Shown here one piece after another: positions 14,817-27,832 of a stretch of DNA of 28,128 bases; the stretch's first letter is position 1; the number at the start of each line of letters is the position of its first letter. Below the pieces are notes generated by a model. That model had not been told where the DNA came from. It saw only the letters and a list, made by a program, of their open reading frames with translations, and ran no database searches. The position numbers and the translations under genes are program-made. The stretch comes from an uncultured Coriobacteriaceae bacterium (GTDB lineage Bacteria; Actinomycetota; Coriobacteriia; Coriobacteriales; Eggerthellaceae), in contig CACXFZ010000138.1 in NCBI GenBank assembly GCA_902767025.1, positions 1 through 28,128 on the forward strand. The letters are read 5' to 3'.

Positions 14817-17800
14817 CTATGCCTTCTTGACATCCACGAGGAATGCCTTGAACTCGGGGATGAAACTGTTGGGGTCGCCTACGTTGGGCGTGAGGTCGTT
14901 GACCACCTCGCCGGTCGAGAACATGTTCGTCCAGTCCCAGTGATGGATCATGCCGACCTGGTGGATGGTTTCGCCGTTGACCGTCAGCGGCCTGAAGCGC
15001 GCGGTGACCAGCGCATTCAAGCGCACCTCGCCGCGGTTGTTCCACACGATGACCTCGTCGCCGTTCTTGATGCCCTTTTCCTCGGCGAGCTCCATGCTCA
15101 TCTCGATGAACTGGCGCGGGGCGATCTCGTTGAGCGCAGGGCACATGCGCGTCTGCGCGCCGGTCTGCCAATGCTCGGTGATCGAGTAGGTGGTGGCCAC
15201 GATGGGGAACTCGCCGAAGTCGCCCTTCTTGGCCGAGGGATGGTCGGCGAACTTCATCAACGGCGAATTCTGCAGCGCGTTGAAGGTGTTCTTCGTGGGG
15301 CTCTCGAACGGTTCGTAGTGCTCGGGCAGCGCTGCATCGGCCAAACCGTAGCTGATGAAGTTGGCGTGCTGCTCGGGCTTCATGAAGAACGCGTTGTCGT
15401 TGGGGGCAACCGGCGTGTTCGTGCCGTCGGCATTGGCCGTCTGGAACACGAAGTCGGGCACGTCGTTGCGCGTGGCCCATTCCGTGCCGTTCCATTCCAC
15501 CAGCACGCGCTTGGGGTTCCACGGCTTGCCGTTGGCGTCGGCCGACGCGCGGTTGTAGATGATGCGGCGGTTGGCCGGCCAGCTGAACGCCCACTTCGGG
15601 TACAGGCCGAGCTCGCCGGGATCGTCGTGCTCGCGACGGCCCACCGGCTGGGCTGCCGGGTCGAGCGGGGCGTCGGAGTTGTTGTAGTAACCGCCGTAGA
15701 TCCAGATGGCGCATGCCGTGGAGCCATCAGCCTTGAGCTGGGCAAACGCAGGCAGCAGGTCCATCTTGGCCGACTTCATGTCGGAGCTGGCAACCTTGTA
15801 GCCGTTGAACGCCCATGCGACGGGACGCGGGTCGATCTTGCCGTCCACGTAGTAGTCCCACTTCACGTTCAGGATGCTTTCGGCGCTCGGGCCGCCTTCG
15901 GCCTTGTACAGCTCGACGATCTTCGTCCACAGCATGTCGGCGATCTCGTAGTCGGGCTTGGCCTCTCCCACCGGCTCGACGGCCTTGTAGCGCCACTGCA
16001 GCCAGCGGCCGGAGTTGGCGATGGTGCCGCTCTTCTCGTAGATGAGCGCCGCAGGCAGGAAGTAGACTTCGGTCTGGATGTCTTCGGGCTTCATGTCGGG
16101 AGCGCGCCAGAACGAAGCCGTGGCGGTCTCGACCCAGTCGGCAACGACCAGCCATTCCAGGTTGGCCATGGCGCGGCGGTTGAACGCCGAGTTCGGGTCG
16201 GACACGACGGGGTTCTGGCCCCAGGCGAAGTAGCCCTTCATCGTGCCGGCGTCCATCAGATGGAAGGTGCCCATCGTGGTGTAGTCGCCGCCGTTCTTGG
16301 GAATCTTCGGCAGCCAGTCGTAGCCGTAGTCGTTCTCGACGGTGGCATGCTCGCCGAACCATTCCTTGAGCGCCGAAACCATGAACTTGGGCTTGTTGGT
16401 GTAGAAGCCGCCGTAGTAGGTCTGCGACTCGCACCAGGCGCGCAGGTTCGGGGACTCGGACACGTTGGGCCAACGCAGGTAGCCCGGGAAGTCGAACACG
16501 AGCATGGCCATGTCGGTGGCACCCTGCACGTTGGGCTCGCCGCGCAGCGCGTTCAGGCCGCCGCCTGCCACGCCCACGTTGCCCAGGAGCAGCTGCACCA
16601 GCGTCATGATGCGCGTGTTGTTCGTGCCGTACGTGTGCTGGGTCTGGCCCAGTGCGTACAGGATGGTGCCCGCCTTTTCAGGGGCGCCGGTGGATGCGTA
16701 GGCCTCGTAGACCTGGATGAGGGTGTCCTCGTCCATGCCGCAGGTCTCGCACACCTTTTCGATGGTGTAGCGGCTGTAGTGCTTCTTCATCAGCTGCCAC
16801 ACGCACTGCGGATCCTGCATCGTGGGATCCTTGCGGGCCACCTGCACCTTGGGGGGCGTGAACTCGGGCACGCCGGGATCCTTGACCCATGCGAACGAGC
16901 CGCCCTCCGAGGTGTCCCACTCGGATTCGCTTTCCACCTGGTAGTGCCACGTGTGCTTGTCGTAGGCCTTCTTCGATTCGTCCCACCCGCTGAAGAAGCC
17001 GGTTTCGGGATCGAAGCTGTAGCCTTCGTCCATGATGAACGTGGCGTTGGTGTAATGCTCGACGTACTCGTGCTGCCACAAGTCCTTTTCGATGATGTAG
17101 TTGATCATGCCGCCGTAGAAGGCGATGTCGGTGCCCGGGCGGATGGGGCAGTAGATGTCGGCCTGCGAAGCCGTGCGCGTGAAGCGGGGGTCCACCACGA
17201 TCCACGTGGCGCCCGCGTCGAGCGCGCGCTGCACCCATTTGCTGGATACCGGATGATTCTCGAGGTTGTTGGAACCGCTGGTAAGGATGACATCAGCGTT
17301 CTTGAAGTCGCAATAGTGACCCGTCATCGAGCCGCGACCGAATGAAGGCGCCAGACCGGCAACCGTGGAGCTGTGTCAAACACGTGCCTGGTTGTCGATC
17401 GCCACCAGGCCCAGCGAACGCATCATCTTCAGGATCAGGTACTCCTCTTCGGAGTTCTGCTGGCTGCCGCCCAAGCTGCCGATGGCAGGCGTGTAGTTGA
17501 CGGTGATGCCGTTCTCCTTTTCGATGAGCGTGGCATCGCGCGTGTCCTTCACGCGGCGGGCCACCCCTTCGATGGCCTCTTCCCAGCTGATCTCCTCCCA
17601 TTCGGTGGCACCGGGACGGCGCACCATGGGAGTGGTCCTACGCTCGGGGTTGTGCACGACCTCGTTCGTCGCCGGATCAACGATGTTGCGCAGCTGGAAC
17701 ATGGCCGCGCCCTTGGGACACAGGCAGCCCTCGTTGATGGGATGATCGGGATCGCCTTCCACGTTGATGACTTCACCATCGCGAACGGAAACAATGGAAC

Positions 17801-17978
17801 CACACCCACCCGAGCAGTAGCAACAGATGTTGGTGTACTCTTCGGTGTTTACCAGTTTCCATTCCCCATTGTGAAGGTCAACGGCAAACGCTTGCGACTG
17901 GGCAGACAGCTCGTATGCCATGCTCCCCGCAAACGCCAGTGCTGTGGCTTTGAAGAAGCCACGTCTTGTGAGATTCAT
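14817..17978 (-). CDS. Selenocysteine-containing formate dehydrogenase alpha subunit (FdnG/FdoG-like), about 1053 aa, Tat signal
   Basis: Two track ORFs join in frame through TGA 17378-17376, giving QARV-U-HSSTVAGLAPSFGRGSMT. TRRGFFK Tat motif, CCYCSGGC...C [4Fe-4S] motif, ALRGEPNVQG. RBS GGAGG. Confidence 0.93.
17347..17364 (-). promoter_or_regulatory. Bacterial SECIS element
   Basis: GGUUGCCGGUCUGGCGCC begins 11 nt after UGA and forms a stem with a bulged U and a GGUC-containing loop. It closely resembles the E. coli fdhF minimal SECIS GGUUGCAGGUCUGCACC. Confidence 0.85.
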
Positions 17979-18005
17979 CAACTGAACCTCCCTTCTCGCC
18001 TTCGC

Positions 18006-18033
18006 ACTATATATATGACTCAAATAGTAGCAA
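18006..18033 (-). promoter_or_regulatory. Candidate promoter of the FDH operon
   Basis: TTGCTA (18033-18028), N16, TATAGT (18011-18006), within an AT-rich patch. Confidence 0.6.
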
Positions 18034-18158
18034 TTTCCGACGGCCGTGCCTAGTAATCCCCGTGAACGGTAGGGACGCATTGCTTGTTTGGACGGTGACA
18101 CCCTGTCTACAGGGGCGATCGAGGCCTGTCGCGAGAGCCGAAATTGCGCGCTGGCAAG

Positions 18159-19493: not shown

Positions 19494-21122
19494 TTAGTCG
19501 TGAACCACCACGGCGTTGCCGATGTTGATGATGTTGAACAGCGAGGCAGCGGCATCGTAGGGCAGGTTGGCACAGCCGTGGCTGCCCCAGCCCTGCGAGA
19601 AGCGCGCGCCGCCGAATGCGGGTTGCCAAGTGGCGTCGTGGAAGCCGTGGCCCTGGTAGGTGAACGGCATCCAGAAGGCCACCTCGGTCTCGTATTCGGG
19701 CTGTCCGGTCGCAACGGAGATCTCGCCGCGCAGGACGGCGGGGCTCTGCTTGTTCAGGATCGAGTAGACGCCTGTGGGGGTGTTGTGCTTGCCATCGGGG
19801 GTGCCGGTGACCACGTCGGATTCCCACACCAGCTGTCCAGCCGTGTCGTAGCAGCGCGCATGCTGCTCGGACAGGCTCAGGTCGACGTACATGCCCCACT
19901 CGGGCAGGCCCTTGCCCGGATACGTGGCGCCTTCGGTGATGCACGGCACGGTCACGGTGGTGTCCACGCCCTGCACGATGGCCTCGCGCACCTGGGCGAC
20001 CAGCTCGGGCGTGTCGACCTCCCAGCCGTAGGTGCCGCCGGAAACGGTGAACACGGCCCCGTCGGGACGGGTGTAGGTGCGCTCGGTTCCGACGGTGTCG
20101 AGCCCGTTGGCGTAATCCTTGAGCCATTCGTTCATGGCTTCCTCGTTGAAGGTGACGGTGTAGTCGGGGGCCAGCACGACCCACTGCGACGTCTGGTCGG
20201 CGTTGATGGTGCCCGCGGGCACGGCATCGGTGCCCAGCACGAGCGCGATGTCGGCCTTGACGTACGAGCTCGCCGTCGCCGCGGCGTTTTGCAGCACGGG
20301 GTCGTCGCGCAGCAGCGCGGGCTTTTCGTAGTCGTCCTCGTCGAGCACGGCCGTGTCGCTCATCGTGGACACCGCTTCGTTGACGGCCTCCAGGACCTTG
20401 TCGGGGTTGAGCTTCGTGCCGGGCTTTTCGGGATCGACGATGAACTCCTTCAGCGCGCTGTCGTAGACGATGCTGGCGTTGACGGGGTCGGTGCCGGTTT
20501 CGTTGAACTGGGCCACGGAATCGCGCACCAGCTGCTCGAGGCCGCCGGCGTTGATGTCGCGCAGCAAGGCGTCGCTGACGTTGTGCGAGCGCTTGAAGAT
20601 GTTGACGGGCCATTGCCACGCGGGCTCCTGGGACACCGCGTTGCGCCCGACCTGGTCCCCGTTCACTTCCACGCCGGCGTCTTTCATCGAGAACGCGAAA
20701 TGAGCGCCGTCGCCGGTGGTGGTGACCGTGTAGTTCGCCATGATCGAGTTGGCGATCTGGGCGATCTGGCTTTCGGATTTCATGGACACGTCCACCGTGC
20801 CCATGCGGGTGTTGGGATACGTGTGGCCCATGAAGAAGATCACGCCTGCAGCGTACAGGACGGCGAGCAGGGCGAGCAGCACCGCGAAGAAGATGCCGAT
20901 CTTCTTCGCGGTGCTCTTCTTGGGCTTGGCATCGAAGTTGACGTATGCGGGCGCCTCGGCCCATGCGGGGTTGTCCTGTGCAGCCTGCCACGAGGCGTCG
21001 GCAACGGGTGCAGCGACCGGCGCGAGCACCTGCGTGGCACCCTCGTCGATGGTCGAGTCGGACTCGTCCGGCTGATCCAGCCAGTTCGTTTCGTCTTCGT
21101 TGTTCTTTGCGTGTCTTGCCAT
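19494..21122 (-). CDS. Membrane-anchored L,D-transpeptidase (YkuD domain)
   Basis: C-terminal VDLSLSEQH...VVTG...TPTG, GFHDA...GSHGCANL catalytic His/Cys. Single TM after a basic KKSTAKK stretch. Start refined to ATG 21122. Confidence 0.9.
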   Translation of the reverse strand: MARHAKNNEDETNWLDQPDESDSTIDEGATQVLAPVAAPVADASWQAAQDNPAWAEAPAYVNFDAKPKKSTAKKIGIFFAVLLALLAVLYAAGVIFFMGHTYPNTRMGTVDVSMKSESQIAQIANSIMANYTVTTTGDGAHFAFSMKDAGVEVNGDQVGRNAVSQEPAWQWPVNIFKRSHNVSDALLRDINAGGLEQLVRDSVAQFNETGTDPVNASIVYDSALKEFIVDPEKPGTKLNPDKVLEAVNEAVSTMSDTAVLDEDDYEKPALLRDDPVLQNAAATASSYVKADIALVLGTDAVPAGTINADQTSQWVVLAPDYTVTFNEEAMNEWLKDYANGLDTVGTERTYTRPDGAVFTVSGGTYGWEVDTPELVAQVREAIVQGVDTTVTVPCITEGATYPGKGLPEWGMYVDLSLSEQHARCYDTAGQLVWESDVVTGTPDGKHNTPTGVYSILNKQSPAVLRGEISVATGQPEYETEVAFWMPFTYQGHGFHDATWQPAFGGARFSQGWGSHGCANLPYDAAASLFNIINIGNAVVVHD

Positions 21123-21232
21123 CCGTCGTTTCTTCCGCATTGCAATGCCTGCTCGCAAGTGGAGCAGGCACGTGGCGCCTTCGTCTCTTCCCTCGCTTCC
21201 CCCTGCGCTGCGCACAGGGGACAATCGGAGTG

Positions 21233-21241
21233 ATTGTAGCA
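21233..21241 (-). promoter_or_regulatory. Extended -10 (TGcTACAAT) for the L,D-transpeptidase gene
   Basis: Minus strand TG-c-TACAAT, about 110 nt upstream of ATG 21122. Confidence 0.55.
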
Positions 21242-21355
21242 ATGGCCATTCCGCAATGAAACAGCTTTTGTGCTACTTCGCAATATTGCCACGCTTGGCA
21301 ACGACGGCAGGAAACCTGCCAACGGGGAAACGGCAAACGGAAGCTTTGCCAAGAA

Positions 21356-21547: not shown

Positions 21548-23062
21548 CTAGGGCAGCGGCAGCTCCACGGTGAACGTGGTCCCTCGCTCTTCGGTGCTTT
21601 CGACCCGTATCGTGCCCTTGTGCTCGTCGACCACGCTCTTGGCGATGGAGAGCCCCAGGCCGACTCCGCTGCCGCGCGTGCGCGCCTTGTCGCTGCGGAA
21701 GAAGCGGTCGAACACGTGCTCTTGGTCTTCGGCGTCGATGACCGGTCCGGTGTTGCGCACCTTGAGCACGCAGGTTTTGTCCAAGGACCTCATGTCCACC
21801 CAGATGCTGCCGTTTTCGTCCACGTACTTGCATGCGTTGTCCACCAGCGTGGCCACCAGGCGCTGCAGGCGCGACGCATCGCCGTAGATGGACACCCCGT
21901 CCTGCACCGTCGAGTCGATGAACACGCCCTTTTCGAATGCGACGGACTCGAACTGGAGCAACTGGCCGTTGACCAGGCCCGAGAAGTCCACGGTGCTCAG
22001 TTCCACGGGGTTTTTCTGCGCGTCGGTCTTTGCCAGGTAGAGCATGTCGTTGACCAGCTCCTGCATGGCATGGGCTTCGGTTTCGTTGCTTTCGATCCAC
22101 TGCCGCTGGGATTCGATGGTCGCTTCGGGGTTGCTGAGCAGGATGGAGTCGTTCGCCATGATCACCGTCAACGGCGTCTTCAGCTCGTGGCTGGCATCGG
22201 CAACGAACTGCTGCTGCTTCTTCCACGCCTGCTCGACGGGACCGACCACGAAGCGAGAAAGCACCACGCTCACCAGGAAGAACGCCGCGATGGCACCCAG
22301 GCATGCGAGCAGGATCGTCCTCAGGAACGCGTCCAGGCCGCGGTCGACGTACCTGCCGGACGCAAAGCCGATGATGTAGCTGTCTTGAAGCTGGGCGACC
22401 TTGTAGTACAGGTTCACGTCGCCCAGGTACCCGTTGACATCCCCCATGCCGTATTCGCGCTTGGCCTGCAAGGCGTCATCGATCGCATCGGCAAGGTCTT
22501 CTTCTTCGATGGGCACCGCCTCGTTGCTTTCTTCCAAGATCGTCCCGTCGGCATCCACCAGGTAGAGAGCCGTGGCCACGAACTGGTCGCTGTCGCTCGC
22601 GCGCGGCGCCCGTTGCGAAAGCCCCGTGCGCTCCCCTCCCACGGACTGCTCGCCCTGCCCGACCCCGTCTGGCGAGGTCGGAGCAGTCGCCGCGCCACCG
22701 GTACCCTGGTTGCCGGTCTCGGCCGAAGAGGAGGCATCCGATCCCGTGGAGCCCGAAGACGATGTGGCGCCTTGGCCGGTGCCACCCTGCGCCTGAGGCG
22801 CATTGCCTTCGGGAACGCCACCCTCGCGCACGGCGCCGACGTTGCCCATCTCGGTCTTGTGGTCTGCGCCTTTGACCATCCTGCTCACGGCCATGTCGAC
22901 GCGTGCACCCAGGGCGTCGTGGACGTCTTCCACGTGCTGGGCGTGGGTGAGCGAGGCCACCACGGCCACGACGGAGCCGAGCACCACCACGGCAAAGACC
23001 ATGTTTGCCAGGATGAACTTCCACTTGAAGCGCTTGAGCGTCTTGCCCGGGTTGTCCTGCAT
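21548..23062 (-). CDS. Sensor histidine kinase (HisKA/HATPase), 2 TM
   Basis: H-box FVADASHELKTPLTVI, N-box LVDNACKY, G1 variant VRNTG, F-box FDRFFR, G2 GVGLGLSIA. Confidence 0.93.
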   Translation of the reverse strand: MQDNPGKTLKRFKWKFILANMVFAVVVLGSVVAVVASLTHAQHVEDVHDALGARVDMAVSRMVKGADHKTEMGNVGAVREGGVPEGNAPQAQGGTGQGATSSSGSTGSDASSSAETGNQGTGGAATAPTSPDGVGQGEQSVGGERTGLSQRAPRASDSDQFVATALYLVDADGTILEESNEAVPIEEEDLADAIDDALQAKREYGMGDVNGYLGDVNLYYKVAQLQDSYIIGFASGRYVDRGLDAFLRTILLACLGAIAAFFLVSVVLSRFVVGPVEQAWKKQQQFVADASHELKTPLTVIMANDSILLSNPEATIESQRQWIESNETEAHAMQELVNDMLYLAKTDAQKNPVELSTVDFSGLVNGQLLQFESVAFEKGVFIDSTVQDGVSIYGDASRLQRLVATLVDNACKYVDENGSIWVDMRSLDKTCVLKVRNTGPVIDAEDQEHVFDRFFRSDKARTRGSGVGLGLSIAKSVVDEHKGTIRVESTEERGTTFTVELPLP

Positions 23063-23068
23063 GAACCG

Positions 23069-23782
23069 CTACTCCTCTTCGGCGCTGTCTTCGGGGCCAC
23101 CCTGGTCGGCACCCTCGAAATCGAGCCGGTAGCCGACCTTGCGCAGCGTGACGATCTTCGTCTCGCTTTCCACGAAGTCGATCTTCTTGCGCAGGAAGGA
23201 TATGTAGGCTTCGACGTTGTTGTCTTCGACCATGGCGTCGACGCCCCAGACCTTGTCGATCAGCATCTCCTTGCTGATCACGCGGCCCGGGTTGCTCATC
23301 AGTATCTTGAGGATCGAGAACTCCTTGTAGCTCAACCGGATATTCTTCGTCTTGCAGGACAGCTCGCAGCTTTCCAAATCGAGGCTGATATCGCCGTATT
23401 CCAGCTTCTCGAAGATCATCTCGCCCTGCCGGCGCGTCAGGCTGCGCAGGCGCGCCAGCAGCTCGGCCGGCGCAAACGGCTTGGTCATGTAGTCGTCCGC
23501 CCCGCAGTCAAGGCCGCCCACCTTGTCGCCAAGTGCATCGCGCGCGGTGAGCATGAGCACCGGGGTGGCCACCTTGCAGCGGCGCAGCTCGCTCACCACG
23601 TCGAAGCCGTTCATCTTGGGCAGCATCACGTCGAGCACGACCACGTCGTAGTTGCCGGTCATGGCATACGACAGGCCGTCGGCTCCGTCGTGCACGACGT
23701 CGACATGGTATTTGGCGTTTTTCATGATTGCCTCGAGCGCTTCTGCCAAGCGCACATCGTCTTCTACTACGAGCACCTTCAT
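23069..23782 (-). CDS. OmpR/PhoB-family response regulator
   Basis: MKVLVVEDD, VLDVMLP, MLTAR, GADDYMTKPF, winged helix ending TLRKVGYRL. Start refined to 23782. Confidence 0.93.
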   Translation of the reverse strand: MKVLVVEDDVRLAEALEAIMKNAKYHVDVVHDGADGLSYAMTGNYDVVVLDVMLPKMNGFDVVSELRRCKVATPVLMLTARDALGDKVGGLDCGADDYMTKPFAPAELLARLRSLTRRQGEMIFEKLEYGDISLDLESCELSCKTKNIRLSYKEFSILKILMSNPGRVISKEMLIDKVWGVDAMVEDNNVEAYISFLRKKIDFVESETKIVTLRKVGYRLDFEGADQGGPEDSAEEE

Positions 23783-23842
23783 AGGCCGACCTTTCGCTGC
23801 GCCGCGCATGCCTCATGCGGGCGATTCGACTGTTGTTCAGCA

Positions 23843-23877
23843 TCAATGATAGCAACTTCCCTGAAACGAACCTGAAA
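23843..23877 (-). promoter_or_regulatory. Direct-repeat box plus extended -10 driving the two-component operon
   Basis: Minus strand TTTCAG-GTTCG-TTTCAG (23877-23861), then 9 nt, then TATCAT with TG at -3. Confidence 0.7.
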
Positions 23878-23899
23878 GCACCGCGGCGTTTTCGCATCC

Positions 23900-23932
23900 T
23901 TTAAGGTTCGCTTAAGCAACGGCTCCTATCTT
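23900..23932 (+). promoter_or_regulatory. Direct-repeat box plus -10 driving the VTC/DUF4956 operon
   Basis: TTTAAG-GTTCG-CTTAAG (23900-23916), then 10 nt, then TATCTT (23927-23932). Confidence 0.72.
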
Positions 23933-23963
23933 CTGCCGCGGACCTCGACAGAAAAGGACGGCA

Positions 23964-24800
23964 ATGAGCGAGACGATTTCCACCATCAACCCCGGCACAG
24001 CGGTCGCAGAAAGCACCGTCGCAACCCCGGGCACCTTCGAGCGCAAAGAGCAGAAGTACGTGGTCGACGGGCAGACGTATACACAGCTCATGAACCTGAT
24101 CGGACAGCGCGTGCAGCCCGACCGGTTCGGGCAGAGCACCGTGACGAGCATCTACTACGACACTCCCCAGTACGACCTGATAAGCCGCTCGCTCGAAAAG
24201 CCGCTGTACAAGGAAAAGCTGCGGCTGCGCGCGTATGGTCCGTACGACCCGCAGGGACCCGTGTTCGTGGAGCTGAAGAAGAAGTTCAAGGGCATCGTGT
24301 ACAAGCGCCGCGTGCAGATGAGCCCACGCGGGGCATGCGCGCTGATGGAAGGCGTGCCGTTCGCACGTGCGAGCACGCTCTGGCCGCTGGAGCCGAGCCG
24401 CTCCTCCATGCATCACAGCGCGCAGGTCGACGAGCAGATCGGGCGCGAGATCGAGGCATGCGTGCAGCGCCATCCGAACCTGGCGCCCGCGTTCGCGATC
24501 ATCGTCGAGCGAGTGGCCTGGACGGCCGTCGACGACGAATCCCTGCGCATCACCTTCGACCTCCATCCGCGCTACCGCACCGGCAACCTCACCTTCGCGG
24601 CCGGACCCGAAGGCCGCCTGATACTGCCCGAGGACATGCGCATCATGGAAATCAAGTGCTCGGGCGCCTACCCGCTCTGGCTCGTGCGCGCACTGAGCAC
24701 CGTAGGCGCCTACCCGCAGCCGTTCAGCAAGTACGGCACCGCATTCGCACTCGCCCAACAAGACCTGCACGGCAAGACGCTCGCCCGCACGTGCGCATAA
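23964..24800 (+). CDS. VTC (polyphosphate polymerase / triphosphate tunnel metalloenzyme) domain protein
   Basis: FERKEQKY, SIYYDT, KEKLRLRAYG, FVELKKK, YKRR, LRITFD, IMEIK, FSKY motifs. RBS AAAAGGA. Confidence 0.87.
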   Translation: MSETISTINPGTAVAESTVATPGTFERKEQKYVVDGQTYTQLMNLIGQRVQPDRFGQSTVTSIYYDTPQYDLISRSLEKPLYKEKLRLRAYGPYDPQGPVFVELKKKFKGIVYKRRVQMSPRGACALMEGVPFARASTLWPLEPSRSSMHHSAQVDEQIGREIEACVQRHPNLAPAFAIIVERVAWTAVDDESLRITFDLHPRYRTGNLTFAAGPEGRLILPEDMRIMEIKCSGAYPLWLVRALSTVGAYPQPFSKYGTAFALAQQDLHGKTLARTCA

Positions 24801-24815
24801 CCGAAAGGAGCTTCC

Positions 24816-25520
24816 ATGTTCGACACCATGTTCACCAGCGTGCTTGCCACCTCCGAGGAGGCCGCCACCACCAGCCTGTCCGGCACGACGTTCCTGCTTT
24901 GCTCGCTCGTGTCGCTGGCGCTGGGCGTGGCCATCGCCTTCATCTACATGTTCCGCCAAGAGCACACGAAGAACTTCGTGGTCACGCTCGCCCTGCTTCC
25001 CATCATCGTGCAGATGGTCATCACACTCGTGAACGGCAACATCGGCGCGGGCATCGCCGTGATGGGCGTGTTCAACCTGGTGCGCTTCCGCAGCATCCCC
25101 GGCTCGGCCAAGGACATCGGCGCGGTGTTCTTGGCGATGGCGGTGGGCCTGGCGACGGGCATGGGGTACCTGACGCTGGCCGTGCTGTTCACCGTCGTCG
25201 TCGGGTTGGCCAACGTCGCCTTCGTGCTGTCTCCTTTGGGCGGGCGCGCAAGCAAGAACGCCGACAAGAGCCTGCGCGTGACCATCCCCGAGGACCTGGA
25301 CTACGGCAGCGCCTTCGACGACCTGTTCAGCCGCTACACCTCGCGCTGCTCGCTGGTGGAGGCGAAGACCACCAACATGGGCAGCCTCTACCAGCTGCAC
25401 TACACCATCACGCTCAAGGACGCGCGCGACGAAAAACCGCTGCTGGACGCCATCCGCACGCGCAACGGCAACCTGACCGTGGCATGCGGCATGAACCTGC
25501 TGGAACAGGAGCGCCTGTAG
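24816..25520 (+). CDS. DUF4956-family membrane protein (TM bundle plus ACT-like C-terminal domain)
   Basis: TLALLP, GNIGAGIAVMGVFNLVRFRS, MAVGLATGMGY, then a soluble IPEDLDY...TTNMGSLY..RNGNL domain. Typical VTC partner. RBS AAAGGAG. Confidence 0.82.
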   Translation: MFDTMFTSVLATSEEAATTSLSGTTFLLCSLVSLALGVAIAFIYMFRQEHTKNFVVTLALLPIIVQMVITLVNGNIGAGIAVMGVFNLVRFRSIPGSAKDIGAVFLAMAVGLATGMGYLTLAVLFTVVVGLANVAFVLSPLGGRASKNADKSLRVTIPEDLDYGSAFDDLFSRYTSRCSLVEAKTTNMGSLYQLHYTITLKDARDEKPLLDAIRTRNGNLTVACGMNLLEQERL

Positions 25521-25564: not shown

Positions 25565-25594
25565 AAAGGACCGGTCGATTGCGACCGGTCCTTT
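25565..25594. terminator. Bidirectional intrinsic terminator between convergent DUF4956 and aldolase genes
   Basis: AAAGGACCGGTCG-ATTG-CGACCGGTCCTTT, a 13-bp perfect stem. Confidence 0.88.
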
Positions 25595-25616
25595 CGCTTT
25601 GGGATGAAATGCGCGC

Positions 25617-26555
25617 TTAGAGGGCGAATTCCTTCTCGCCGTTGAACACGGCCAGCGCGTCGTCGACGCTGTAGTCGGACAGCGTGATGGCGCTGATGGC
25701 CTTGGTCAGGCGCACGGCCTCGTCCAGGCTGCGCATGTGGATGTTGCGGCCCGTGGCGTTGCCGCAGGCGCCGCCGATGTGGATCTGGTCATGCAGGCTG
25801 GACAGGAAGTCCTTGGCGTCGGCCTTGCTGCCGCCGGCGCACACCAGGCCCGTGCGGCCCGCTGCCTGGCTGGCGATGGCGAGGTTTTCCGCGGAGGTCT
25901 TGCCGTCTGCCTCCTTGGGCGGGTTCACCTTCACGAAGTCGGCGCCCAGGCACAGGGCCACGCCGGCAGCACCGGCGATGAGCGCAGGATCCTTCTCGTC
26001 CTCGACGGCTTTGCCGCGCGGGTAGATCCACAGCACGACGACCAGGCCGTTGGCATGGGCCTCGGCGATCAGCTCGCCCGCTTCGGCCATCATCGTGGAC
26101 TCGTACTCGCTGCCCAGGTAGATGGTGTAGCCCAGGCCGACGATGTTGCACCCTGCCTCGCGCATGGCCAGCACGGCCTCGAGCTCGTGGAGCTGGGGCG
26201 AATAGGGATCGTCCTGCTTGGTCTTGACCAGGTTGGTCTTGGAGTTCATCTTCACCAGGTAGTTGATTTCGGGGTAGTCCGGCGCATAGCGCGCAATCAG
26301 GCCGCGCTGCCCTGCCAGGACGCCGCACACGCCCTGCGAGCCGATCTCGAACAGGTGCTCGGGGTCGTTGTCGGACGGGTCGATGCCCTCGCCGTAGAAG
26401 TCGCCGTTGAGGTGCTCGATCTTCTGGTCGCAGGCAAACAGCATCAGGCGGCCCGTTTCACGGGTGGCCTTCAGGTAGTTGTCGATATAGGTTTCGCGAG
26501 CCTCGGGCAGGACGTCTGCCGGAACCTTGACTTGGTCACGAGTGATGCTAGGCAT
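25617..26555 (-). CDS. Class I (DhnA-type) aldolase, probably fructose-bisphosphate aldolase
   Basis: LFACDQKIEH, GYTIYLGSEYE, LWIYPRG, LGADFVKVN Schiff-base Lys, ATGRNIH. Start refined to 26555 (RBS AAAGGAG). Confidence 0.85.
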   Translation of the reverse strand: MPSITRDQVKVPADVLPEARETYIDNYLKATRETGRLMLFACDQKIEHLNGDFYGEGIDPSDNDPEHLFEIGSQGVCGVLAGQRGLIARYAPDYPEINYLVKMNSKTNLVKTKQDDPYSPQLHELEAVLAMREAGCNIVGLGYTIYLGSEYESTMMAEAGELIAEAHANGLVVVLWIYPRGKAVEDEKDPALIAGAAGVALCLGADFVKVNPPKEADGKTSAENLAIASQAAGRTGLVCAGGSKADAKDFLSSLHDQIHIGGACGNATGRNIHMRSLDEAVRLTKAISAITLSDYSVDDALAVFNGEKEFAL

Positions 26556-26721
26556 GTGTTCTCCTTTCATGCTTCCCGTTGCAGGAAACTCGAATACCGT
26601 AGTAATACTACATTTTTTGGGGCGGAAATGCACTTGTTCCCGCACATTCCAAGGCCACATTACAAGACAGCCACACGGACGGCCGCACTGCAGGGAGCGT
26701 TTGGTGCTTCACAGCGCTCGC

Positions 26722-27186
26722 TCAGAACCATTCCTTGCGGTTGCAGACGTATTCTTGCGTGAACTGGCTTTGGCTCTTGACCAGGTAGATGATGCCCTCC
26801 ACGAAGCCGATGATGCCCATCACGCCGCCGGCCAGGCCCAGCGTGACCAGCGAGCCCAGGATGCTCACGCCCAGCATGATGAATCCCGCCGTGGTGTATC
26901 CCAGGTAGAACTTGTGGATGCCGAATCCGCCCAGGAAGATGCCCAGCAGGCCTGCCGCCACGTGGTCCTTCGACGACACGCACGGCTGCTGCGTGGGCGG
27001 ATTGGGAACGGTCTGGTTGGTGTTGCCCGGCACCTGCCAGGCCTGGGTCGGCGGCGCTTGGCCGTCCCAGTAGCGCTGCTTGGCCGAGGCGGCGTCTTGG
27101 GGAACGGGCGGCACCGACTGCTGCCAGTACTGCTGGCTGTGCTGCTCGTTGCCGCTGTTCGGGTTGTTGAAGTATTCGATGCCCAC
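26722..27186 (-). CDS. TM2-domain membrane protein with Gln/Pro-rich N-terminus
   Basis: KDHVAAGLLGIFLGGFGIHKFYLG TM2 motif. GTG start at 27186 with RBS GAAAGGA. Confidence 0.82.
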   Translation of the reverse strand: MGIEYFNNPNSGNEQHSQQYWQQSVPPVPQDAASAKQRYWDGQAPPTQAWQVPGNTNQTVPNPPTQQPCVSSKDHVAAGLLGIFLGGFGIHKFYLGYTTAGFIMLGVSILGSLVTLGLAGGVMGIIGFVEGIIYLVKSQSQFTQEYVCNRKEWF

Positions 27187-27274
27187 CTGCGTCCTTTCGC
27201 CTGCAGGATACAACGATAGGCAATCCGGTGCGGCCTGGGTAGGCGCACGGGTCATCTGTTGGCAGCTTGTTACG

Positions 27275-27832
27275 CTAGTTGAACTGCTGCTGGGTGGGCT
27301 CGAGCCCGCGCGCAATCAGCGATTCGACGGCGTCTGCCGCGACCGCACACGACACGGCCAGCTGTTCGGCGTCTTCCTTGCGCGGGCGCGCCAGCACGTA
27401 ATCGGCGGCATCCATGCGTCCCGGCGGGCGCCCGATGCCCACGCGCACGCGCAGCCAGTCGCGCGTCCCCAGCTTGTCGGCGATGGACTTCAGCCCGTTG
27501 TGCCCCGCGGACCCGCCGCCCAGCTTGGCCCGGATCCGGTCGGGATCGATGTCCAGGTCGTCATGGACCACGATCAGCTGCTCGGGCGAGATGCCGTAGG
27601 CGCCGCACAGGTGCTTGACCGGACCGCCCGACGTGTTCATGAACCCCTGGGGCTTGGCGAGCACGACATCGTCGTCGGCCACGACGATCTTGCACGTCAC
27701 GGCGCCGCACTCGCTTTTCCAGTAGCGCCCCCCATGACGTTCGGCCAGGATGTCGACAGCGTCGAATCCCGCGTTATGGCGTGTGTGCTCGTATTCCTGC
27801 CCCGGATTGCCCAGGCCCACGACTAAGTACAT
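27275..27832 (-). CDS. pth: Peptidyl-tRNA hydrolase
   Basis: MYLVVGLGNPG...TRHNAGF, KPQGFMNTSG, VVHDDLD, GGSAGHNGLKSI, RVRVGIGRP. RBS GAAAGGA. TATAAT at 27866-27861. Confidence 0.95.
   Translation of the reverse strand: MYLVVGLGNPGQEYEHTRHNAGFDAVDILAERHGGRYWKSECGAVTCKIVVADDDVVLAKPQGFMNTSGGPVKHLCGAYGISPEQLIVVHDDLDIDPDRIRAKLGGGSAGHNGLKSIADKLGTRDWLRVRVGIGRPPGRMDAADYVLARPRKEDAEQLAVSCAVAADAVESLIARGLEPTQQQFN

Follow-up and report, generated by a model that had tools for sequence, protein, structure and literature searches.

A 28,128-nucleotide stretch of contig CACXFZ010000138.1, from an uncultured Coriobacteriaceae bacterium (assembly GCA_902767025.1) and referred to here in its full length as the window, carries at positions 21548-25520 a two-component sensor pair divergent from a two-gene operon, which encodes a VTC-domain protein related in fold to yeast Vtc4 and a membrane protein of the family DUF4956. 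In our reading, this locus holds two of the three components of an envelope module that the Eggerthellaceae carry as a rule, together with its sensor pair. The third component, a Cthe_2159 beta-helix lipoprotein, is encoded on another contig of the same genome behind a promoter box matching those of the window. As the best explanation of the whole, to which we assign a probability of about 0.55, we propose a sensor-controlled VTC/DUF4956/Cthe_2159 envelope module. An autoregulated OmpR-family sensor pair, whose kinase has a large extracytoplasmic region, would sense an envelope signal, and the regulator would bind boxes before its own genes, the VTC-DUF4956 operon, the unlinked Cthe_2159 gene and a few other envelope genes. 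At the membrane, the cytoplasmic Vtc4-like enzyme would act together with the DUF4956 protein, which is MgtC-like and whose arginine loop and ACT-like domain would face the cytoplasm. The enzyme would produce or process a phosphoanhydride compound, polyphosphate formed from ATP being the likeliest. This compound would serve the surface glycan-binding lipoprotein.

The source assembly (G000) is a 76%-complete, 1.8-Mb metagenome-assembled genome in 290 contigs. It was compared with the family at large in a survey of 80 Eggerthellaceae genomes, 46 of which hold a VTC homologue, and 40 VTC loci were compared in gene order. The named homologues are from Eggerthellaceae, including Denitrobacterium detoxificans (G039) and Raoultibacter. 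A near-complete genome of the same genus (G054) has a locus fully syntenic with the window.

Gene order and the third partner

Gene calls were taken from an open-reading-frame listing combined with Pfam profiles, and they bear out the kinase-regulator pair divergent from a two-gene operon that the initial annotation had described. The locus contains the following features.

21548-23062, minus strand: sensor histidine kinase (HisKA, 2.8e-16; HATPase_c, 3e-29)
23069-23809, minus strand: OmpR-type response regulator (Response_reg, 2.2e-28; Trans_reg_C, 3.8e-23)
23846-23877, minus strand: regulator promoter, TTTCAG-GTTCG-TTTCAG (23877-23861), 9 nucleotides, -10 element TATCAT (23851-23846)
23900-23932, plus strand: VTC operon promoter, TTTAAG-GTTCG-CTTAAG (23900-23916), 10 nucleotides, -10 element TATCTT (23927-23932)
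23964-24800, plus strand: VTC protein, 278 residues (PF09359, 2.6e-38, profile positions 1-233 of 235)
24816-25520, plus strand: DUF4956 protein, 234 residues (PF16316, 1.7e-16)
25565-25602, plus strand: intrinsic terminator, 13-bp stem (25565-25594), 4-nucleotide loop, T-rich tail

The two genes of the operon have the same orientation and are separated by 15 nucleotides, with the ribosome site GAAAGGAG ahead of the DUF4956 gene. The terminator is as strong as first supposed, with a folding energy of -30.8 kcal/mol (z = -7.1), none of 200 shuffled sequences being as stable. Its hairpin is common to the convergent DeoC-type aldolase gene, with an A-run on the opposite side.

Across the family, the norm is a kinase-regulator pair divergent from VTC and DUF4956, which are followed by a Cthe_2159 beta-helix protein (PF14262) of 500-670 residues. 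The DUF4956 gene adjoins VTC in 39 of the 40 loci and the Cthe_2159 gene stands directly 3' of DUF4956 in 37, the exceptions being G054, G055 and one locus limited by a contig end. No CotH or Cthe_2159 gene is present within the window operon, an absence that had been taken at first to define the core of the system. This reading does not survive, since the partner is adjacent in the relatives and the one Cthe_2159 gene of this genome, carried by the 2.1-kb contig C68, shares the box. The region upstream of that gene consists of TTTCAG-GTCCG-GTTAAG, about 10 nucleotides, TATCGT and the ribosome site GGAAAGGA, then ATG, so that box, -10 element and ribosome site are laid out as at the VTC promoter. 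The encoded protein begins with a signal peptide of the lipoprotein type, in which LAGC is the lipobox. In G054 the Cthe_2159 orthologue, 56% identical to the C68 protein, has a perfect box upstream, and the Cthe_2159 gene of G055 is boxed as well. Hence a boxed partner outside the locus, of the CotH or carbohydrate-binding kind that the initial annotation had reckoned would count against its two-gene core, does exist on C68, in G054 and in G055. Because the gene on C68 lies under a matching box, the VTC-DUF4956 pair does not appear to be a stand-alone core, and its status as a minimal core is, judged from sequence, not supported.

Two CotH-domain proteins are encoded at a distance from the VTC locus (C257:2451-4754, minus strand, and C23:13429-15120, plus strand), one of them with three CWB2 cell-wall-binding repeats. 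Neither was retained as the missing partner: the gene on C23 has no box scoring at least 12, and the upstream region of the gene on C257 leaves the contig; for neither gene is a link demonstrable. A membrane GGDEF diguanylate cyclase with a box of its own (L091:4165-5310) is divergent from the relocated Cthe_2159 gene in G054, which hints at a link to cyclic di-GMP and surface polysaccharide. The frame beside the C68 lipoprotein gene was considered as its counterpart and rejected, as it is not GGDEF and is unlike the divergent gene in G054.

Promoter boxes, sensor pair and regulon

The 154-bp intergenic region between the regulator and VTC genes holds two boxes, and the match noted earlier between the two promoters proved real. 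All 27 family loci in which the regulator is divergent from VTC have both boxes, each oriented towards its own promoter, and the box upstream of VTC is kept in relatives whose sensor pair is unlinked. The consensus is TTT(C/A)AG-N5-TTT(C/A)AG, 9-10 bp upstream of the -10 element; the latter has the family form TAnnnT, which resembles TACAAT at the regulator promoter and reads TAGCAT or TAGGAT at the VTC promoter. Counts of TTTMAG-N5-TTTMAG came to 44 in 12 relatives, where the reversed control gave 5, and to 10 in G054, where it gave 0. The exact box strings of the window have no second copy elsewhere in its genome, so that a weight matrix derived from the family was needed for further sites. 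With this matrix the regulator box scored 26.9, the top match in the 1.8-Mb genome, and the VTC box 17.8, at rank 4 and under the 20.3-31.6 range of the relatives.

A direct repeat in place of the -35 element, 10 bp from the -10 element, is the PhoB arrangement, and by sequence and position the boxes are in the PhoB/CiaR style of activation. The matching boxes, kept family-wide, support a tie between the sensor pair and the VTC-DUF4956 operon, and we infer that the window regulator binds them. G054 (L093:1541-2254), G039 (L106) and the source genome (C194) encode a further regulator of the OmpR type, whose recognition helix is RTIDSHVKNLRAKI and which is 35% identical to the window regulator; in G054 and G039 its gene is preceded by TTTMAG repeats, so that cross-regulation between the two systems is possible. 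This boxed paralogue also lends something to the idea that the sensor pair is next to the VTC operon by chance and that another regulator owns the boxes. We regard that idea as highly improbable, for the divergent layout with mirrored boxes recurs in 27 loci from about 25 genera with differing flanking genes.

Hydropathy places a first transmembrane segment of the kinase at residues ~13-42, an extracytoplasmic region at ~43-241 and a second transmembrane segment at ~242-277, followed by HisKA and HATPase_c. The extracytoplasmic region, of about 200 residues, is acidic and in part of low complexity. Kinase orthologues adjoining VTC in relatives are 34-52% identical. The regulator likely starts at the ATG at 23782 (MKVLVVEDD), since the alignments of relatives begin at residue 5-10. 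Its orthologues adjoining VTC are 47-79% identical, compared with ~35% for paralogues, and it lies within 8 kb of VTC in 32 of the 40 family loci. A search of NCBIfam placed kinase and regulator in no named orthologous group, PhoB/PhoR, CopR/CopS and RppA/RppB all being below cut-off; the kinase matches (PnpS, RppB, CopS and PhoR) were without exception sub-threshold. An identity as PhoBR was rejected, with PhoB at 188.8 bits against a cut-off of 296.2 and PhoR at 169.4 against 334.2.

A strict promoter pattern gave four sites in this genome, compared with 2 for the reversed control and ~0.3 for local shuffles. They belong to the regulator, to VTC, to the lipoprotein gene on C68 and to a membrane-protein gene on C82, and in each case a start codon with its ribosome site follows 40-90 nucleotides downstream. 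The search for other box-bearing genes that had been proposed for the locus was therefore productive, yielding C68 and C82 by the strict pattern and a gene on C222 by the weight matrix. The C82 gene (C82:12784-13719, minus strand) encodes a DUF4405/cytochrome-b561-like membrane protein with a Cys-rich C-terminal CTxCxKxCPL motif; its counterpart in G046 (L111:222-1136) is also boxed and conserves the motif, which makes it a regulon member in two genera. The C222 gene (C222:1-765, minus strand) encodes a second boxed lipoprotein, matching no Pfam family, whose orthologue in G054 (L092:1708-3273) is 62% identical and has four half-sites upstream. Its resemblance to beta-helix carbohydrate-binding clusters in the ESM Atlas may serve as a lead only.

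Boxed genes in the relatives extend this picture. G026 has a boxed Tat-exported calcineurin-like phosphoesterase. In G038 a perfect TTTAAG-N5-TTTAAG precedes the gene of an HtrA-like protease (L099:322-1821; Trypsin_2 and PDZ); among the streptococcal targets of CiaR, htrA is the classic one. Boxes followed by a TACTGT or TACAGT -10 element were also found at L108 (G039, minus strand from ~2560), L109 (G039) and L100 (G038), ahead of stretches of ~100-250 nucleotides that hold no credible frame and show CU-rich, CCUCC-like runs and a terminal hairpin with a T-run. These candidate small RNAs match no Rfam family; in appearance they are analogous to the small RNAs that depend on CiaR in streptococci. 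On C93, a weak boxed site followed by a hairpin and T-run was considered as a possible further small RNA and dropped, having no Rfam match and a poor second half-site and adjoining a tRNA. As judged from these promoter patterns, the regulon is limited in size and consists of envelope proteins.

The streptococcal CiaR operator is TTTAAG-N5-TTTAAG, 10 bp upstream of the -10 element (PMC3091779). The system described here has the repeat, its spacing and its position relative to the -10 element in common with CiaRH, and likewise a small envelope regulon; among the relatives, one has the boxed HtrA-like protease and two have the boxed CU-rich candidate small RNAs. It differs in phylum (Actinomycetota here) and in its preferred half-site, TTTCAG. 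The CiaR recognition helix VVEVYVSKVRKKL and that of the window regulator, NVEAYISFLRKKI, match at 7 of 13 positions, a comparison confined to the helix. We consider the resemblance a likeness of operator logic rather than demonstrated orthology.

The VTC and DUF4956 proteins and the flanking genes

Profile searches confirmed both family assignments, with 132.4 bits for PF09359 (cut-off 23) and 60.8 bits for PF16316 (cut-off 30.6). The AlphaFold2 model of the VTC protein has a predicted local distance difference test score (pLDDT) of 89.5, and its best solved match is the catalytic domain of yeast Vtc4 (3g3r; E 3.6e-14, template-modelling score, TM, 0.67). Cryo-EM structures of VTC are also among the top solved matches, whereas other tunnel enzymes (ygiF and class IV cyclases) reach a TM of ~0.45 or lower. 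The N-terminal two-thirds of a profile built from 34 homologues could be aligned to Vtc4 (E 1.8e-9), which gives these pairings of catalytic residues:

window VTC K31: Vtc4 K200
window VTC R87: Vtc4 R264
window VTC R89: Vtc4 R266
window VTC K105: Vtc4 K281
window VTC V181: Vtc4 Y359
window VTC R183: Vtc4 R361

Five of the six alignable residues are kept, and all five are invariant in the 34 homologues, as are the tunnel residues that had been named by eye in the initial annotation. In yeast, K200, R264, R266, K281 and R361 are required for polyphosphate synthesis, E426 is an Mn2+ ligand, and K458 is the sole residue separating active Vtc4 from inactive Vtc2 and Vtc3 (bioRxiv 10.1101/2023.01.27.525886). 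The motifs MEIK (E229-x-K231) and FSKY (S255-K256) are likewise invariant in the 34-sequence alignment and stand in the expected order, and at motif level they are likely counterparts of Vtc4 E426 and S457-K458. The window protein consists of the VTC domain only, SPX domain and fused C-terminal transmembrane channel domain being absent from its 278 residues. Sequence and model together support its designation as a cytoplasmic Vtc4-like triphosphate tunnel metalloenzyme.

The DUF4956 model (pLDDT 90.5) shows five helices (residues 23-138) and a C-terminal ACT-like domain (151-226) of beta-alpha-beta-beta-alpha-beta order. A Foldseek search of the Swiss-Prot part of the AlphaFold database returned MgtC, YhiD and SapB proteins as its top eleven matches, covering residues 18-228 with E ~1e-7, and for residues 143-231 the C-terminal domain of Mycobacterium tuberculosis MgtC (2lqj) ties as the best match (Z 9.0). 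A sequence search against solved structures found nothing, and Foldseek against the PDB gave no whole-protein match, only generic ACT-like or ferredoxin-like matches to the C-terminal domain. DUF4956 resembles the MgtC/SapB/YhiD family (PF02308) in size, in its helical membrane domain and in the ACT-like domain. It differs in having a loop of its own, LVRFRSxPG, which is nearly invariant, and in escaping the PF02308 profile, which has 0 matches in this genome and aligns to DUF4956 with a probability of 33% in hhalign. From the charge distribution the N-terminus is predicted to be outside and the C-terminus inside, so that loop and ACT-like domain would both face the cytoplasm, the compartment of the VTC protein. 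This placement would fit docking or anion binding, and the model offers no evidence of a pore. Among the listed family matches DUF4956 is 58-94% identical, compared with 43-77% for VTC.

These models bear directly on the view that VTC and DUF4956 alone form a complete, minimal split version of the yeast complex, in which DUF4956 oligomers would be the pore and no third partner would be required. In favour of such a view are the pairing of the two genes in 39 of 40 loci, the preserved active site of Vtc4 type and a conserved arginine loop on the predicted cytoplasmic face of DUF4956. It nevertheless seems to us unlikely. The modelled architecture of DUF4956 is MgtC-like and unlike the channel of yeast Vtc1/3/4, which weakens the split-equivalent proposal of the initial annotation; a prediction of the complex between VTC (residues 20-278) and DUF4956 lends it no support, and Cthe_2159 is adjacent in 37 of 40 relatives and keeps the same box after relocation.

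On the far side of the terminator, the window encodes a DeoC-type aldolase (25617-26660, minus strand; NF005321, 496 bits) and a TM2-domain protein (26722-27315, minus strand). Both genes also adjoin the module in G054, G039 and G026, with 83-88% identity for the aldolase, and this neighbourhood is probably plain synteny. Directly downstream of the kinase is an L,D-transpeptidase (19494-21242, minus strand; PG_binding_4 and YkuD) with a sigma-70-like promoter of its own; it is also a neighbour in G054, and in G026 at ~3.7 kb from the kinase. Two neighbouring frames at 14817-18101 (minus strand) match parts of one molybdopterin oxidoreductase, one the Fe4S4 domain and the start, the other the rest with the dinucleotide-binding domain, a division that would fit a single gene with read-through of an in-frame stop.

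Related systems and possible function

The locus is an ordinary member of a widespread module that is already in print (PMC7112168, PMC12345266). An accessory set of cotH, a 'polyphosphate polymerase' (VTC) and DUF4956 was described in Gram-positive pel loci in 2020 (Whitfield et al., PMC7112168), and the set SIR_1592-1594 of Streptococcus intermedius followed in mBio in 2025 (PMC12345266). There, SIR_1592 has an MgtC membrane domain and an ACT domain, and deletion of the DUF4956 and CotH homologues reportedly lowered both Pel polysaccharide and aggregation (PMC12345266). The two arrangements share a soluble VTC protein, an MgtC/ACT-like DUF4956 protein and a secreted third protein. In the pel-locus set that third protein is CotH, whereas here it is the Cthe_2159 beta-helix lipoprotein, unlinked in this genus; and, unlike in the pel-locus set, there are no nearby pel genes here and the genes are driven by a two-component system of their own, which is autoregulated and has a defined operator.

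With the yeast VTC complex (Vtc4/Vtc3/Vtc1; 3g3r, 8i6v, 7ytj), the module has in common the catalytic tunnel fold (TM ~0.65) and the five basic residues. The yeast complex has an SPX domain and a fused three-helix transmembrane domain; the window VTC is without both, and its membrane partner is the unrelated MgtC-like protein. Polymerase activity is known for yeast, whereas here it is predicted from fold and residues. That the VTC-DUF4956 pair acts as a polyphosphate polymerase and translocase is, on sequence and model, a reasonable hypothesis.

Several points weigh against the proposed module or parts of it. At the level of control, the VTC box of the window is the weakest of the family by the weight matrix, and binding of the boxes is assigned to the regulator by inference while the paralogous regulator is boxed too in two relatives. 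At the level of the enzyme, Vtc4 Y359 is replaced by V181, and the C-terminal half of the VTC profile (the E426, S457 and K458 region) failed to align to Vtc4, so that those three assignments stay at motif level. The complex prediction, with a score of 0.00, speaks neither way. To our knowledge MgtC, which DUF4956 resembles in place of the yeast channel, is not itself known as a transporter. A VTC mutant of S. intermedius is without a reported change in Pel or aggregation (PMC12345266), and our literature search found no assay of any bacterial VTC protein and no established function in print for the bacterial VTC-DUF4956 pair, as the initial annotation had held. Finally, this genome encodes PPK1, a two-domain PPK2 and Ppx. 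The search for ppk genes suggested at the outset thus succeeded, and its outcome makes VTC dispensable for bulk polyphosphate; the PPK2 and PPK1 genes are immediate neighbours in opposite orientation (C240:11551-14346), and their presence indicates canonical polyphosphate metabolism in the same genome.

Some of these points also fit a scheme free of polymer export, in which VTC would be a tunnel hydrolase or signalling enzyme, DUF4956 an MgtC-like regulator of ATP, phosphate or Mg2+ balance during envelope stress, and the lipoproteins merely co-regulated stress proteins. The MgtC-like fold spans the whole DUF4956 protein, and MgtC is described, as cited in PMC12345266, as acting on ATP synthase and PhoR rather than transporting. 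The tunnel-enzyme superfamily consists mostly of hydrolases and cyclases (ranks 14-25 of the structure matches), PPK1 and PPK2 are present, and the relatives' regulon contains the HtrA-like protease and other stress-type envelope proteins. We hold this scheme to be a rather unlikely alternative. Its difficulty is that the nearest fold and residue set are those of Vtc4, together with the likely counterpart of the lysine motif diagnostic of the active polymerase, and that the tight and widespread linkage of VTC-DUF4956 to secreted CotH or Cthe_2159 proteins argues for a shared pathway spanning the membrane, as in the sensor-controlled three-component module.

A more far-reaching form of that module is doubtful, though worth stating: the Eggerthellaceae may have a CiaRH-like envelope-stress circuit, sharing the operator logic of streptococci and, in some members, boxed HtrA and CU-rich small RNAs, whose core output throughout the family, VTC/MgtC-like/beta-helix-lipoprotein, would be an inducible machine that makes polyphosphate at the membrane and delivers it or phosphoryl groups to the surface. 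If true, this would be a third prokaryotic polyphosphate route and the first to act outside the cytoplasm.

What is new here is the Cthe_2159 variant, the dedicated CiaR-like control and the compact regulon. Widespread among bacteria, the VTC-DUF4956 pair retains the active site of a eukaryotic polyphosphate polymerase, and the relocated but still boxed Cthe_2159 gene argues that a surface-exposed third partner belongs to its function, which constrains any mechanism. With a sensor pair of its own, a regulon of very few genes behind a defined operator, and cultivable relatives such as Denitrobacterium detoxificans, the module is tractable, so that switching on the regulator should reveal its product and the site of synthesis.

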